IMG/VR virus record: IMGVR_UViG_2548876964_000035
DNA length: 15,159 bases
From: a virus
Taxonomy: Duplodnaviria > Heunggongvirae > Uroviricota > Caudoviricetes
Reading direction: 5' to 3' (one strand)
Made by a program: the position numbers. Shown in pieces: positions 1 through 6,000 of the stretch (its first letter is position 1; each line of letters opens with the position of its first letter).

Positions 1-3000
1 TCATTTTTTCCAGAGGCGGTCGAACTCCGCCTTCGCAAAATAAGCGGAAGCCTGGCGAAGGATATCGTTACTGCGGCGCAGTTCACGATTTTCACGTTCC
101 AGCTCTTTCAGACGCTGACGTTCAGCGCTGGTGAGCCCACCATCACCGCCCCCGGTATCCCGCTCATGCTGGCGAACCCAGACACGCAGAGTCTCCGGCG
201 TACAGCCAATCTTTGGGGCAATGGAACAAATTGCCGCCCACTGTGAGTCATATTCATCCTGACTTTCCAGAACCATACGAATCGCCCGCTGACGGACTTC
301 GGGGGAAAAACGAGTATTTTTAGTCATCCTGTTTACCTCTTTCTCAGGGAGTTTAGTCTCCAGGATTTCCGGGGCGGTTCACCGACGGGAAATCATTGCA
401 GGCTGTATGTTGTTTATTTCCCTGGAATAATGTATTTGCGGATCGGAAAGTACCGAAGATAACCATTAATGACAATACGGTGACGTGGTCGAATCTTGAG
501 CAGGGTATGGGATCTTATATTTATACATTCTGGGGATAAGTGTTATGTACGGTTTGAGCATTATGAAGCCGGATGGCAGCGTATGGATAAGTCCAGGTTT
601 TACGCCGCAGTGTCTGATCAACAAAGGCACCATACCGGCGACTGAAAAGTCTTTTTTTAAAACATCAATCCCGTCAGGCAAAAGTTGTTTTTTCTTTATC
701 AGAACAGAGAAGAAGGCCGATGTCATGTACACGCATGAACAGATTGATGGATATCATGCACTAAGGCTTCATGTAATTGTCAGGGGAACGAACCCTGGTG
801 TTACGACGGTTTATGCTTTCGCGAATATGGTTACTCCACCTTCTGAGTATGGTATCGCCATGTATAACCCGGACGGTGAGATGATTTATCATGGCGAAAT
901 GATGCTGCTTGACGCGAAGTTAATACCTGTTGATATCAAATTTGAAAAGGACCTTGGATATCCATGCGCAATCATGCCTGCACTGGTCGGGTATTATAAC
1001 TGGAAAAGAACTCCTTATGATCGACCGATTTATACCACATCCACTGGTGCTACAGGAAATAAAATATATTCCTGTGAGCATTATTCCGGTGGTGCAACAT
1101 GGGATATTCGAAAGCCGTATATAGATAAGGTCCTGGTTATTAATACATCAGTATATGATTAGTTGAAGCGAGTCTTTAATATTCATTTAAAATGTCTAAA
1201 AAGATGTATTATTAAAAAGTTTAGCGTGTTATCTGAATACAGGATATCTTAAATGAAGAGTATAGCAACACTGGTTGTGTGTGCAATCTCCGGGATTGCC
1301 TGTGTAAATTTATCTGCACATGCAGCAGAAGGAGAGCATACAATTTCTCTGGGGTATGCGCACTTTCAGTTTCCGGGACTGAAGGATTTTGTAAAGGATG
1401 CGACTGCTCATAACAGGGAGACTTTCAGTCATTTCGTCAACAGAAACTACTTTTCTTCATTGGGCGAATATACAGATGGTCGGGTCAGTGGATATGAAGG
1501 CAAGGATAAAAATCCACAGGGCATTAATATCAGGTATCGCTACGAGATAACGGATGATTTTGGCGTTATCACCTCTTTTACATGGACGCGTTCTCTCACT
1601 AACTCACAGACATTTATTGATGTGCAGTCAGCCGATCATACCAGGAAGATTAAGAATCCGGCAGCTTCTGCCAGAACGGATATCAGGGCGAATTACTGGA
1701 GTCTGTTAGCGGGGCCTTCATGGCGGGTTAATCAGTACATGAGTTTATATGCGATGGCAGGGATGGGCGTTGCTAAAGTTAGCGCTGACCTGAAAATTAA
1801 GGACAATATTAACAGTAGTGGCGGATTTTCTGAAAGCAACAGCACGAAAAAAACCTCCCTTGCGTGGGCTGCAGGTGCACAGTTTAACCTGAATGAGAGT
1901 GTTACACTGGATGTGGCTTACGAAGGTTCCGGCTCTGGCGACTGGCGCACGAGTGGCGTTACTGCTGGCATTGGCCTGAAATTCTGACCTGTATCCGGTA
2001 ACCGTTTACTACCCGCTGTGATGGCGGGTTTTTTATTGCCCGTACAGGGCAAAAACCGTAAATTATGCGTGGGTGCCTTTCGGCTGATGGCTGGAGGGTG
2101 AACCTGAAGGCCTGATGTGGAAAGGCCCCGAGTCAACTTAACGTTAACCCGAGGCCCTAACACTTCGTACCTTAAGCAAGTAGAAGGTTAGCGCCTCTCT
2201 GTAAAAGGAGTCAAGCGCTATGTCGCAAAAATCGCTTATCACCGTCACAATTTGCATGACGGTTATCTTCACCATCTGGATGTTGCACGGTTCACTGTGT
2301 GAGTTCCGGCTGAATTTGTGGGGAGCGGAGTTTGCGGCGTTCTTACAGTGTAAGCAGTAGGAAAACCGCGACGGGGACGAGAGTCCCCGTCAACTGGTTG
2401 CTGAGGTTCAGCCGATATGGCACCCGTTTCAGGTGAGAGAATGAACGATAAAATTCTCTGGTATATGCAGCGTGTTGTGAGAAATTCCCGCAACCCTGAA
2501 TTTATGAATGAAGTTAAAGACGCCTGCCTTAAAAAGCAGGCGTTTTGTTTTGAGGCACCTGATGGCTTTTTGGTGCTGCGTTCTGTGCTCAGTGCTGATG
2601 GTATCCCTTATGTTCTGGTGTTGCTGGGCGTGTGTACGGGGAGTAACAGCGTTGAGCGTTACCTGCCGGAGGTGAAGACATTAACCCATCTGGCTGGCGG
2701 ACGCTGGGCTGAGTTCCATACGGCAAGGCGGGGATTTATCCGGCTGGGAAAACGACTGGGCTTTGAGCGAATGCCGGATGATGAGGATGGCTTCATGGTG
2801 TTCAGGATAGCGGTCTGACTGCTACAGTTTTCATCATTGTGTTTAAACCAACATTGTAATTCACATTCTGACCCTGCTCCGGCAGGGTTTTTTGTTATCC
2901 AGGGGGCCATTATGGGTGGAAGTAAAGGCGGTGGTGATACCAAAGTAAAACCAACAGCAGCGCAAATAGCACAGGAAGAAGTGGCCTGGAAAGGGTGGCA

Positions 3001-6000
3001 GGATTACAAAAATATCCTCCGCCCGGCTGAAGATAACTTCATGGAAAAGGTCGATGACCTGAACAGTGAGCAGCAGTACGACAATATTGCTGGCACCACA
3101 AATCTGGGGTATCAGAAACAGTTTGGCGAAGCACGGAAGGAGCTTGCGGGTAATCTTGCTCAGTCCGGCGTTGACCCATCCAGTGGTCGTTTTAATGCGG
3201 TAATGAATGCGAACCAGAGTGACCAGGTAACCGGGCAGATTGACACAACCACACGGGGGCAGGTATCGCAGGCAGATAAGTATGTTGCCGGGCTACAGGA
3301 TGTTGCTGCTCTCGGTTCTGGTCAGAAGGCGGATGCGTTACAGAGTTTTAACTCTCTGGCAGACAGCAGTCTGGCAAAAGCTAAATCGGATGCACAGGCG
3401 GCGTTTACGAAACAGCAGGGGCGAGCCTCTCTTGTTGGCGCTGGTCTGGGTGCGGCAGGTGCATATGCGATGCATAAGGCTGGCGGTAGCGGAGGAAGTG
3501 GCGGTGCTAAAACACCTGGCACCGGCGCTAATGCCATTCAGCATCAGGCTCAGAACTGGAGACTGTAATTATGGAGTATGGCAAATACGAAACTCTCGCA
3601 AGGGCTGGTTATTCAGGAGCAGACCGCCCACAGGGTGACTGGCAGACGTCAGCAGCGCTGACACGCCAACAATACGACGACTGGCGAACCAGATATTTGC
3701 CCCGCGTGGCAAGGCTGGCTGACCTTGGGGAGAACAACAGTCTGATGAATGCACAGCTTGCACGGGTGGGAGGCCTTGCCACTTCCAGTCTCCGTACAGC
3801 GCAGATGGCGCAGGATAACCAGATGGCGAGATACGGGGTAAACCGCCCGGATAATCCCGACAGTAATACGCTGGGGTTACGTAATGCCCTGGCAATTGCT
3901 GGCGCGAAAAATGGTATCCGTGAAGCCGAACAGGATCGCCAGATGAATATTCTGACGGGGGCTTCTGCACCGGCAAGACAGAAACTGAGTGTTGGCGGCC
4001 AACTGGTGGCAGCGTAAGGGGGCAATATGGGATACGGTTTACTGGATATTGCAAATCAGTCGCGGCGTGAGGCATTACAGGGAATAAGTGACGCAGACAG
4101 ACGACGTGAAGAAATTGAGGCTGCGAACAAACAGATGGCGGCGCAACAGAAAGCGCAGAACAAGCAGAATATCGGTACGGGCATTGGTACGGGGGCGGCT
4201 ATTGGCGCATCCGTTGGTGGTCCTGTTGGTGCTGTTGCTGGAGCAGTAATTGGCGGCATTGCTGGTTCTTTGTTTTAAGGAGTGGTGAATGAGCGGATTT
4301 GCACAGGGGTTACTTGCCGGATTCAGCACCGTTGACCAGGCAATGACCCGTCGTAAGGAGCTTGGTCTGCGTGAAGCACAGCTTGCCCGGCAACAGAAAA
4401 ATAACGAGCGCGATTTTGAGTTTGCGCAGTCTCAGTTTGAACATAATAAAAACGTTGATCAGCGGAACTTTGATTACAGAGCCAAAGTTGACGACCGTAA
4501 TTATGCACTGAAGGAGAGGGAGTTTAACGCTAACCAGAATTACCGGAATGCGTCACTGGGTATGGAGCAGCAGCGACTCCAGTTGCAGAAATACAACCAG
4601 CGACGGCTTGAGTATAACGATATGATTGCCCATAGCCAGCCACTAATGGAAGCGCTTGGAAAAGCAATTGAGGCTGGCGATCAGGAGGCTGCAACGCGTC
4701 TGTTCGGGCAGCTGCCAAAGGGACATCCATTAATTCTTATGTCAAACGAAGGCTATGCAGCGAAAGCGGGTCAGGCCGTGATCAACCTGCAAAAAATCTT
4801 TGGTGATAAGCCGGACATGGCGATCGATTCGCTGAATACCCCGGAAAATCTCGATGTGCTTTCCGGCGTGTTTGCCCCGGAACTACAACAGCGTATTGGC
4901 ATGCCTGATTCAACCGGGGACAAAACGATAAAAGAGGCCAGGATTGGCAGTATCGTACCAGCGCAGCAGGAAGGGTACGTACTTATTGGCCTTGATCTCA
5001 CATACAGCGATGGCTCCACCGCGCATAAACCTGTAACAGAATACGGCAGTGCGCACCCTGATGATCAAACCGTGCTGGCGATACCCGTTGATAAGGCTAT
5101 CGCTCAGGTCAGGGATCGCAGCAAATTTGCAGAGATATCGAAAAATTATGGTTATTTTATGCCGAAGCAGCAGGGACTTTCTCTGAAAGAGCTTCAGAAG
5201 GGGGCCAGCAACGTAGCGGCGGACGCGATCAAGAATGGCGGTAATGCTCAGGCTGCGGTGGATGAATATTATGCTGCGACTGGTTCACAACCGCATCAAC
5301 AGAAAATTCAGCAACAAAAACTTCAGCAACAGGTTATCAACTGGGCGGGAGATGATCCTGATAAGCTGTCATTTGCCAGAAATGTAGCGGCCCGTCAGCC
5401 TGAAATGCTGGAACCTCAGAATCAGAAATTGCTGGAGAACGGGTATGCGAATTTTCTCCGTATTCAAAAGGCCAGGGGGGAACAGGCCAGAGATGAAAGT
5501 GCTTCATCTGCATCTCAGTTTATCCGTGGACTGAAACAGAATTACGCCCAGTAATTCACGATATTCCATTAATACCATTTCCTGATGCCCGGCCATTGTG
5601 CCGGGTTTTTTTATGGAGTCTGTATGGCCTATTCAGAGGAACAGCGTCCTGAGGCGCAACTCGGTAACCAGAATCGTAACAGCCTGAACATTCAGCAACC
5701 CGGCGAAACTGACAGCTATGAAGCATTTTTCTCTGATCCGAATCGCTGGAAGGATAACAGTACGTCGTTCAGCCTGGGCGATGTATTGCCAACAATGGGT
5801 AAAGGTTTCGCCCAGTCCGTCCGGGGAACAGGGGAAATGGCCCGTGGACTCGGTGATGCGATGATTCAGAGCCCGGTAAAAACAGGGGCGCGTATTTTAA
5901 ATGAGTTCAGCCGTATGGGGCTGCCGGGTGTCGCAACTGTGCAGGATATTTTTGCCGGTGGCAGCAGGGGGGCTGATGAGGTCATCGATACCCTGCCTGA

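Follow-up and report, generated by a model that had tools for sequence, protein, structure and literature searches.

In the T=9 N4-like phage DEV, the ejectosome operon encodes gp73, a small membrane pore, gp72, a 521-aa helical protein that forms a ring at the portal and then a periplasmic tunnel, and gp71, a 3398-aa virion RNA polymerase (vRNAP) whose conserved C-terminal domain binds gp72. Phages T7 (gp14-15-16) and P22 (gp7-20-16) have adjacent genes of increasing size whose virion products are needed for infectivity and not for DNA packaging, and phage P1 reportedly has a number of small internal proteins alongside a giant one in its head (the Dar system: DarB, Hdf, DarA, DdrA, DdrB and Ulx). 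Here we describe a 15,159-bp stretch of DNA (the window; IMG/VR record IMGVR_UViG_2548876964_000035) that corresponds to the distal late region of a Shiga toxin (Stx) prophage of the 933W/Sp5 type (Sepvirinae, Traversvirus), in which four small genes, ORF76 to ORF79 of Sp5, lie upstream of the giant gene ORF80. We propose that ORF76-79 are probably internal virion proteins that are co-packaged and expelled with ORF80 and aid DNA delivery across the envelope, with the DEV operon as the apparent closest analogue.

The segment from 2400 to 5700 is 100% identical to VT2-Sakai/Sp5 and matches 186 Stx-phage records at ≥90%, all of which call the block genes 'hypothetical'. Genes were mapped from the Mondal et al. 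2016 supplement (PMC5155283) and the phi24B record: ORF76 (ECs1238; phi24B gp51; 218 aa) at 2912-3568, ORF77 (ECs1239; gp50; 148 aa) at 3571-4017, ORF78 (ECs1240; an unnumbered 83-aa protein in phi24B) at 4027-4278, ORF79 (ECs1241; gp48; 421 aa) at 4289-5554, and the giant ORF80 (ECs1242; gp47; 2793 aa) at 5624-14005, all on the plus strand. The coordinates and strand that the original prediction gave for the four small genes are exact, the spacers between them are 2, 9 and 10 nt as it stated, and each start does follow a purine-rich Shine-Dalgarno-like run (GGGGG 2902-2906, GGAG 3558-3561, GGGGG 4018-4022 and AAGGAG 4277-4282). These are real genes, since all four belong to full-length PHROG families (E values from 1e-45 to 1e-213), are annotated in the 186 records, and yield phi24B peptides in mass spectrometry. 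Their composition is less uniform than had been supposed: all four are Gln-rich (10.1, 8.1, 8.4 and 10.9% for ORF76 to ORF79 respectively, or 8-11%), while with Gly contents of 13.8, 9.5, 18.1 and 7.1% only ORF76 and ORF78, which are also Ala-rich, are clearly Gly-rich, and only ORF77 (10.1%) is Arg-rich. The description of ORF76 as having Gly/Ala termini holds, with an N-terminus of MGGSKGGG and a Gly/Ala-rich C-terminal part.

Virion proteomics, one of the checks named with the original prediction, places all four products and the giant in purified particles. A 2026 phi24B preprint (doi 10.64898/2026.04.10.717836) combines cryo-electron microscopy (cryo-EM) with virion proteomics on a preparation that includes about 36,000 emptied particles, and the proteins of phi24B have 98-100% identity to their counterparts in the window. 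Its supplement reports 10,962 peptide-spectrum matches for gp47, 1,634 for gp48, 523 for gp51, 129 for gp50 (83 in the batch sample) and 13 for the 83-aa protein; in the batch sample gp48 has more spectra than the portal. Normalizing the batch-sample counts by length and setting the portal to 12 gives rough copy numbers per virion, which are not the phi24B authors' figures, of ~37 for gp48, ~32 for gp51, ~48 for gp50, ~6 for the 83-aa protein and ~23 for gp47; on the same scale the hexameric nozzle scores 6.4, the dodecameric adaptor gp64 11.6, and the 18 fiber chains 22. The phi24B atomic model is composed of gp69, gp67, gp84, gp72, gp64, gp62, gp57, gp61 and gp56, and contains only capsid, cement, decoration, portal, two adaptors, nozzle, fiber and needle (doi 10.64898/2026.04.10.717836). 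All five of our proteins are thus in virions yet outside the model, which assigns them no density within the head. The phi24B authors describe gp47 as 'not observed' in the model, propose it as the sole encapsidated ejection protein, and list its organization as an open question (doi 10.64898/2026.04.10.717836). Their text makes no mention of gp48, gp50 or gp51, with gp48 labelled 'Transcription factor?', and dismisses as a contaminant a 'bacteriocin homolog' that we take to be the 83-aa ORF78 product (doi 10.64898/2026.04.10.717836). A 2025 paper on a phage of enterohemorrhagic Escherichia coli (PMC12502783) also includes mass spectrometry, its main text reporting head, fiber and 'virion structural' proteins only.

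Deletion genetics in Sp5 point in the same direction. Mondal et al. constructed in-frame deletions of every unknown Sp5 gene and found that the ORF79 and ORF80 mutants form neither plaques nor lysogens, each being complemented in trans, and that their particles have normal-looking heads with DNase-resistant DNA packaged like wild type (PMC5155283). The ORF76 deletion lysogenizes very poorly although infection still occurs, and the ORF75, ORF77 and ORF78 deletions are not among the defective mutants (PMC5155283). A requirement for infectivity and not for packaging is therefore seen for ORF79, together with ORF80, and in part for ORF76, with ORF77 and ORF78 dispensable; the DNA-filled, non-infectious particles of the ORF79 and ORF80 deletions support the predicted role in delivery together with the giant.

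The linkage of these genes is strongly conserved. An IMG/VR scan by ORF76 alignment identified 80 loci, 35 of them 47-58% identical, and the order ORF75-76-77-78-79-giant shows no deviation in any of them. The giant gene is present in 72 of the 80, with seven of the eight absences corresponding to contig ends; the exception, L070, is without ORF79 and the giant although ~3.9 kb of sequence remains, and locus L068 carries an internal deletion. Loss of linkage with the giant, which would have spoken against the original prediction, is thus not what is seen, given the constant order and absences that are mostly contig ends. Searches by tblastn with ORF79 and ORF76 extend the family to Aeromonas phage phiARM81mr and about 100 Vibrio phages. 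The phiARM81mr block consists of p64 (119 aa), p65 (212), p66 (124), p67 (85, annotated 'bacteriocin'), p68 (466) and p69 (3190), and that of Vibrio phage D80 of 0015-0018, an inserted opposite-strand HNH gene, 0020 (467 aa) and 0021 (3066 aa). BLASTP establishes gene-by-gene orthology of the Stx block with both: ORF75 is 41% identical to its Aeromonas and 22% to its Vibrio counterpart, ORF78 51% and 41% respectively, ORF79 matches at E values of 6e-11 (phiARM81mr) and 9e-10 (D80), and the last ~900 residues of the giant are 41% identical in Vibrio. The five genes and ORF75 therefore occur in the same order in 80 of 80 loci and also in the Aeromonas and Vibrio phages, as clustered genes of increasing size inherited with the largest protein.

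Several variants of this arrangement were observed. In Aeromonas-type loci (L002 12801-14660; L056-L084), 0.9-2.9 kb separates the ORF79 homolog from the first portion of the giant with a match to the Stx protein; this stretch is unannotated in phiARM81mr and may encode either an N-terminal region of the giant that has diverged or a separate, inserted gene product. Natural fusions also occur. Protein P0018 combines an N-terminal half resembling ORF78 with a homolog of ORF79; P0002, in which residues 1-327 of ORF79 run directly into the final residues of the giant, looks like a deletion derivative; and P0024 (1386 aa) has an ORF79-like N-terminal part followed by about 900 further residues. These fusions are consistent with a functional link, or could be artefacts of assembly or decay.

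A modified form of the cassette is present in more distant podophages. The giant's C-terminal module occurs in Ralstonia GP4-like, Burkholderia Bcep22-like, Ruegeria 45A6 and Bacillus Page/Pony-like podophages, and in structure the virion most closely related to that of phi24B is the GP4 virion (doi 10.64898/2026.04.10.717836). In GP4 the genes encode gp72, an acyl-CoA N-acyltransferase; gp71, a virion structural protein of 277 aa; gp70, a PAPS reductase; gp69, a virion structural protein of 509 aa; and gp68, the giant. In BcepIL02 the layout is the same apart from an additional Gly-rich virion protein. The C-terminal module of the giant is truly homologous, as is ORF76, which matches GP4 gp71 and BcepIL02 gp66 by hhalign (probability 96.8%, E value 2e-10), with BLASTP links through the Aeromonas protein. 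GP4 gp71 and ORF76 have in common an MGGKGGGD N-terminus and a core motif, G-(V/I)-(D/N)-P-x-S-G-(K/R)-(F/Y)-Q, and the C-termini of gp71 and BcepIL02 gp66 are ORF78-like Gly-zipper tails, such that one longer protein fuses an ORF76 core with the Gly zipper, and there is no separate ORF77 counterpart. The order of GNAT gene, ORF76-type gene, gene for a ~500-aa protein, and giant is otherwise the same. GP4 gp69 and BcepIL02 gp69 are treated here as positional analogues of ORF79, homology of ORF79 to the 500-aa proteins being unproven. A further difference is the PAPS-reductase-like gene inserted in the block in GP4 (L004 4740-5465) and Bcep22-like phages (L005 1587-2306), with 5 Cys, and absent from Stx, Aeromonas and Vibrio phages. 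Proteomics of JC1, a Bcep22-like phage, detected the ORF76-type gp64, gp67, gp68 (510 aa) and the giant as virion components, and neither the acetyltransferase nor the PAPS reductase.

The ORF76 superfamily is large, with at least 686 clusters recovered by profile search, and the only names given to its members are 'virion-associated' or 'virion structural protein'. BcepIL02 gp66 (L005 578-1573) shares the core but is extended at its N-terminus by ~55 residues that include a hydrophobic helix (MLENAIWAGLIAALIVYLLPFLF...), in place of the Met-Gly-Gly start of the Stx, Aeromonas, Vibrio and GP4 proteins; this looks like two N-terminal solutions on one core. Some superfamily members of ~400 aa (P0267, P0272, P0283, P0286, P0294 and P0297) have a C-terminal Peptidase_S74 domain (PF13884), an intramolecular chaperone of trimeric fibers, and this hints that ORF76-type proteins may be trimeric. 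In Ruegeria 45A6, the protein encoded at the ORF76 position (L006 2319-3305) has a C-terminus that resembles PF13884 by eye, with no Pfam match at E ≤ 0.001.

A second feature separates the virion proteins of the cassette from the enzymes encoded among them. ORF76-80 contain no cysteine in 3,663 residues (none in the 2793 aa of ORF80), compared with 45 in 5,177 residues for 15 other late proteins of the same phage, from which about 32 would be expected (P about 1e-14); for ORF76-79 alone, P = 5e-4. Cysteine is likewise absent from Aeromonas p65-p69, Vibrio 0016-0021, GP4 gp71, gp69 and gp68, BcepIL02 gp66, gp68, gp69 and gp70, and the Ruegeria 45A6 giant and ORF76-position protein, whereas the interleaved enzymes do carry it (1-4 in the GNAT proteins, 5 in the PAPS reductase). 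Among the 35 divergent loci, no Cys occurs in the 15,144 residues of the ORF76-78 homologs, compared with 74 in the 4,578 residues of the ORF75 homologs. The DEV paper reports that the ejected vRNAPs of N4 and DEV are also cysteine-free.

The individual proteins have few recognizable features. In the ORF76 family M1 and G2 are invariant in all 24 aligned sequences and are followed by a Gly-rich stretch, the core motif G-V-D-P-S-S-G is conserved, and the C-terminal segment is Gly/Ala-rich. ORF77 is probably a paralog of the ORF76 core, as judged from its sequence: hhalign aligns it (probability 81%, E value 1e-5) with the same region of GP4 gp71 that ORF76 matches, and ORF76 and ORF77 match each other weakly (E value 5.5e-4). 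ORF78 has an N-terminal helix and a C-terminal glycine zipper with GxxxG repeats at about residues 50-83, contains the sole hydrophobic 19-residue window among the four proteins, and is a candidate membrane-inserting subunit. Its description as a 'bacteriocin' was rejected: the match to Bacteriocin_IIc (19.7 bits, below the cut-off of 27.1) covers only the Gly zipper, and the gene lies in a virion module. ORF79 has a conserved N-terminal G-x-A-x-G-F motif and belongs to a small family of 66 representatives. Its AlphaFold2 (AF2) model, with a mean predicted local distance difference test (pLDDT) of 85.7, consists of a helix from residue 4 to 129 (~19 nm long), an alpha/beta core (130-290) and a C-terminal helical domain; the description of the four proteins as all helical and of low complexity therefore fails for ORF79, which has a β-sheet-containing core. 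No neighbor in structure or sequence was found in PDB or BFVD. The 'transcription factor / seryl-tRNA synthetase' label of ORF79 was also rejected, as it has no Pfam match at all. Searches against PDB-chain sequences with ORF76, ORF77, ORF79, the A1/A2 family profiles and the C-terminal 906 aa of the giant gave nothing meaningful.

ORF80 is a polyvalent protein with LPD5, LPD1, MuF_C and LPD38 domains, and its most widely conserved part is the C-terminal ~900 aa. Pfam identifies no methyltransferase, helicase or AAA+ domain in it. The 'AAA+ ATPase' (COG1483) label given by Mondal et al. 2016 (PMC5155283) was consequently set aside. The longest ORF for the giant begins at an ATG at 5585, at the foot of a terminator-like hairpin (5587-5606). 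Translation from a second ATG in the same frame, at 5624 and preceded by GGAG, would yield the 2793 aa reported for Sp5 ORF80, and this ATG is most likely the start.

The conserved unit does not begin with the first of the four genes, as originally delimited, but reaches one gene upstream to ORF75 (2441-2818, plus strand; Sp5 ECs1237; phi24B vb_24B_43). Its longest ORF starts at 2417, with homologs and phrog_610 favoring 2441. ORF75 was not detected in phi24B virions. Its AF2 model (pLDDT 80.4) has the order of elements alpha1-alpha2-beta2-beta3-beta4-alpha3-beta5-alpha4-beta6-beta7, which is the GNAT topology, and all 50 of the 50 Foldseek matches listed for PDB are GNAT proteins or domains (best E value 6e-4, TM scores 0.5-0.67), the top neighbors being AtaT/TacT toxins, Naa50 and NatB/C/D/E. 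ORF75 is therefore predicted to have a GNAT acyltransferase fold, an assignment from the modeled structure, since Pfam has no match even at E = 10 and thin-profile hhalign against the GP4, Bcep and Ruegeria acetyltransferases is negative (probability 0.2%). No canonical copy of the acyl-CoA pyrophosphate motif Q/R-x-x-G-x-G/A is visible in the aligned beta4-alpha3 loop, and the protein contains 3 Cys. Annotated acyl-CoA N-acyltransferases of GP4, BcepIL02 and Ruegeria 45A6 occupy the ORF75 position, and those of GP4 and BcepIL02 are encoded by ORFs that overlap the beginning of the gene for the ORF76 homolog. We considered whether ORF75 is a moron, and rejected this despite the downstream terminator because the gene is kept at the same position in every lineage examined.

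It is conceivable, but we consider it quite improbable, that the GNAT-fold ORF75 acylates internal proteins before packaging, the most interesting target being the invariant N-terminal Gly of the ORF76 family. In its favor, ORF75 is unpackaged, its fold neighbors include protein N-terminal acetyltransferases, and the gp51 N-terminal peptide is never observed; in the phi24B proteome file there is neither that peptide, the first starting at residue 12, nor an acetyl or myristoyl annotation. Counting against it, ORF75 is non-essential in Sp5 (PMC5155283), has no evident acyl-CoA motif, and is retained as a GNAT in BcepIL02 although the ORF76 homolog there lacks a Met-Gly start. If true, it would give a phage a lipid- or acyl-modified membrane-penetration peptide comparable to the myristoylated VP4 of picornaviruses and mu1N of reoviruses.

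The model we favor is as follows. ORF76-79 would be made late and packed with ORF80 in the T=9 head, expelled through the tail at infection, and would build or prime a DNA conduit over the outer membrane, periplasm and inner membrane. The glycine zipper of ORF78 and the Gly/Ala-rich C-terminus of ORF76 would be the membrane-active parts. ORF79, a medium-sized essential subunit, would be coupled to ORF80 through the latter's conserved C-terminal module, and may ring the portal prior to ejection and then span the periplasm. ORF80, including its MuF_C and LPD38 modules, would form the bulk of the complex, ORF77 would be a dispensable paralog of the ORF76 core, and ORF75, with its predicted GNAT fold, an unpackaged cytoplasmic helper. 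Proteomics, linkage and genetics support the suggestion of the original prediction that these are internal core or ejection proteins, or partners of the giant, in one delivery module; their location in the head, their ejection and the roles of the individual subunits are what we infer.

The likeness to the DEV operon is one of architecture. Both phages have short tails and T=9 heads, and in each a single transcription unit contains neighboring genes for a small membrane-type protein, a mostly helical protein of ~420-520 aa and a giant virion protein. Either giant is seen by mass spectrometry, is invisible in reconstructions, is Cys-free, and is best conserved at its C-terminus. The two differ in that no similarity of sequence or fold was detected, in that the Stx giant has LPD, MuF_C and LPD38 domains where the DEV (Schitoviridae) giant is an RNA polymerase, in that the Stx phages have four small proteins and a GNAT-fold gene compared with two small proteins in DEV, and in that the Stx order runs from small to giant. 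The T7 and P22 proteins share the features noted above, but no homology was found by any test run, nor was a lytic transglycosylase domain found in the Stx proteins.

Several observations weigh against an ejection role. The searches against known ejection proteins that were suggested for these genes revealed no homology, with no similarity in sequence or fold to T7 gp14/15/16, P22 gp7/16/20 or DEV gp72/73. The ORF78 zipper scores 25.7 bits against Gly-zipper_YMGG (PF13441), short of the cut-off of 28.9 and hence of formal membership, and ORF76, ORF77 and ORF79 have no hydrophobic 19-residue window. For ORF79, homology to GP4 gp69 or BcepIL02 gp69 could be established no further than an N-terminal Gly/Ala/aromatic motif of ~40 residues. 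The external fiber and needle are also Cys-free, so avoidance of cysteine marks extracytoplasmic function and not ejection specifically. Location within the head and exit at ejection are deductions. P22 and T7 ejection-protein mutants still make tailed particles, whereas particles of the ORF79 and ORF80 deletions reportedly are not labelled by anti-tail-fiber antibody (PMC5155283; data not shown). Finally, ORF77 and ORF78 are dispensable under laboratory conditions, with K-12 as the host (PMC5155283).

The lack of fiber labelling led Mondal et al. 2016 (PMC5155283) to call ORF79 and ORF80 tail-formation genes, and the corresponding explanation, a structural or assembly role in the tail for ORF79 and possibly for ORF76-78, draws on the finding that the deletion particles package DNA yet bind no such antibody. 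We regard it as improbable. The phi24B tail, comprising the portal, two adaptor rings, nozzle, six fibers and needle, is fully modelled from other products, and about 30-50 copies of unexplained protein are not seen on the outside of the phi24B particle. Homology to tail-fiber or tail-assembly families, which would have spoken against the original prediction, was not found for the block proteins: tail families in Pfam, PHROG and NCBIfam give no match for ORF76, ORF77 or ORF79, and there is no similarity to chaperone families. The immuno-EM result is a negative that was not shown, and even wild-type tails were only 'occasionally observed' (PMC5155283), so that the missing label could reflect either an internal complex needed for tail attachment or a weak negative. 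Far less probable still, and close to refuted, is that the small proteins have no structural role and are present in virion preparations as contaminants, in keeping with the legacy 'bacteriocin' and 'transcription factor' notes. The phi24B authors did set aside the 'bacteriocin homolog', and the GenBank note of vb_24B_47 mentions a transcription initiation factor, but both labels rest on weak similarity, ORF79 being without a Pfam match. Moreover, gp48 exceeds the portal in batch-sample spectra, ORF79 is essential for infectivity, and the counterparts are virion-associated in independent Burkholderia phage proteomes.

The main competing explanation, to which we assign a minor but real share of the probability, is that the four proteins are adaptors that target the giant to the capsid or assemble it there, as a hierarchical internal scaffold like Hdf, DarA and DdrA of P1, and are passive at infection. 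It overlaps with an ejection role and the two are not mutually exclusive. Relatives of the giant are annotated 'DarB-like', incorporation of DarB into the P1 head reportedly depends on several small head proteins, the linkage to the giant is strict, and the shared phenotype of the ORF79 and ORF80 deletions is expected if ORF79 loads ORF80. However, DarB has methyltransferase and helicase domains, whereas the Stx giant, with only LPD5, LPD1, MuF_C and LPD38 in Pfam, has neither, and ORF79 and ORF80 are essential for infection of K-12, a non-restricting host (PMC5155283). For these reasons the Stx giant is not a Dar-type accessory system, and 'DarB-like antirestriction' is a misfit as its label; no homologs of the small P1 Dar proteins were found. 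The presence of the small proteins at tens of copies, the Gly-zipper membrane motif of ORF78, and the avoidance of cysteine, which suggests exit from a cytoplasm-like interior, also speak for delivery and not for a passive adaptor.

The block is not a free-standing four-gene operon as first described, but a segment of a long late transcript: no sigma-70-like promoter was found between 2000 and 6000 (0 against 3.7 expected), and terminator-like hairpins on the plus strand bracket it on both sides. The first, with a T-run, lies between ORF75 and ORF76 (2870-2895; -16.5 kcal/mol, z = -4.8) and the second, with a run of seven Ts, between ORF79 and the giant (5587-5613; -15 kcal/mol). In lambdoid Stx phages the late genes are transcribed from pR' under Q antitermination, and both hairpins would therefore be read through in lytic growth. 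A strong terminator before an essential 8.4-kb gene is unusual, and could set expression of the giant relative to ORF79.

Upstream of the block are ORF73 (gp54; 545-1162) and lom (1253-1987). The left end of the window (1-381) is an IS3-family element with a minus-strand OrfA (1-327) that matches HTH_Tnp_1 and looks IS629-like. Identity to VT2-Sakai begins at position 382, 70 nt inside a 75-aa gene upstream of ORF73 (ending at 539) that corresponds to Sp5 ORF72 and phi24B gp55, and this gene is thus interrupted. Since gp54 and gp55 have been proposed as a candidate needle-tip receptor-binding pair (doi 10.64898/2026.04.10.717836), host recognition by this prophage may be altered. At the right end, similarity to VT2-Sakai stops ~40 nt past the stop codon of the giant (at ~14040) and is followed by a minus-strand ORF (14227-15159) of the formate/nitrite-transporter family, presumably from the host chromosome. 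A prophage-chromosome junction, at a site differing from that of Sp5, thus appears to lie within the window, which contains no tRNA gene.

Virion association and essentiality have already been published. In the literature searched we did not find the four proteins, beyond gp47, assigned to an ejection or cargo module, nor the GNAT-fold partner, the ORF76/ORF77 paralogy, the cysteine-free signature, or a six-gene cassette conserved from Stx phages to those of Aeromonas and Vibrio and modified in GP4 and Bcep22-like phages, where the ORF76-type protein and giant are homologous and the other positions analogous.

Short-tailed Stx phages spread Shiga toxin genes, and their 22-nm tail must pass a genome of about 60 kb through the envelope of E. 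coli. The analysis turns five 'hypothetical' genes and a GNAT-fold gene into a defined, conserved candidate delivery cassette that is common to Stx phages and many enterobacterial, Aeromonas and Vibrio prophages, and has a modified form in GP4 and Bcep22-like phages. Its total avoidance of cysteine provides a simple sequence signature that splits the packaged proteins from the interleaved enzymes. The candidate cassette would represent a third podophage solution to genome delivery, unrelated in sequence to those of the T7/P22 and N4 types, and ORF79, the C-terminal module of ORF80, and ORF76 would be targets for blocking Stx-phage transmission.

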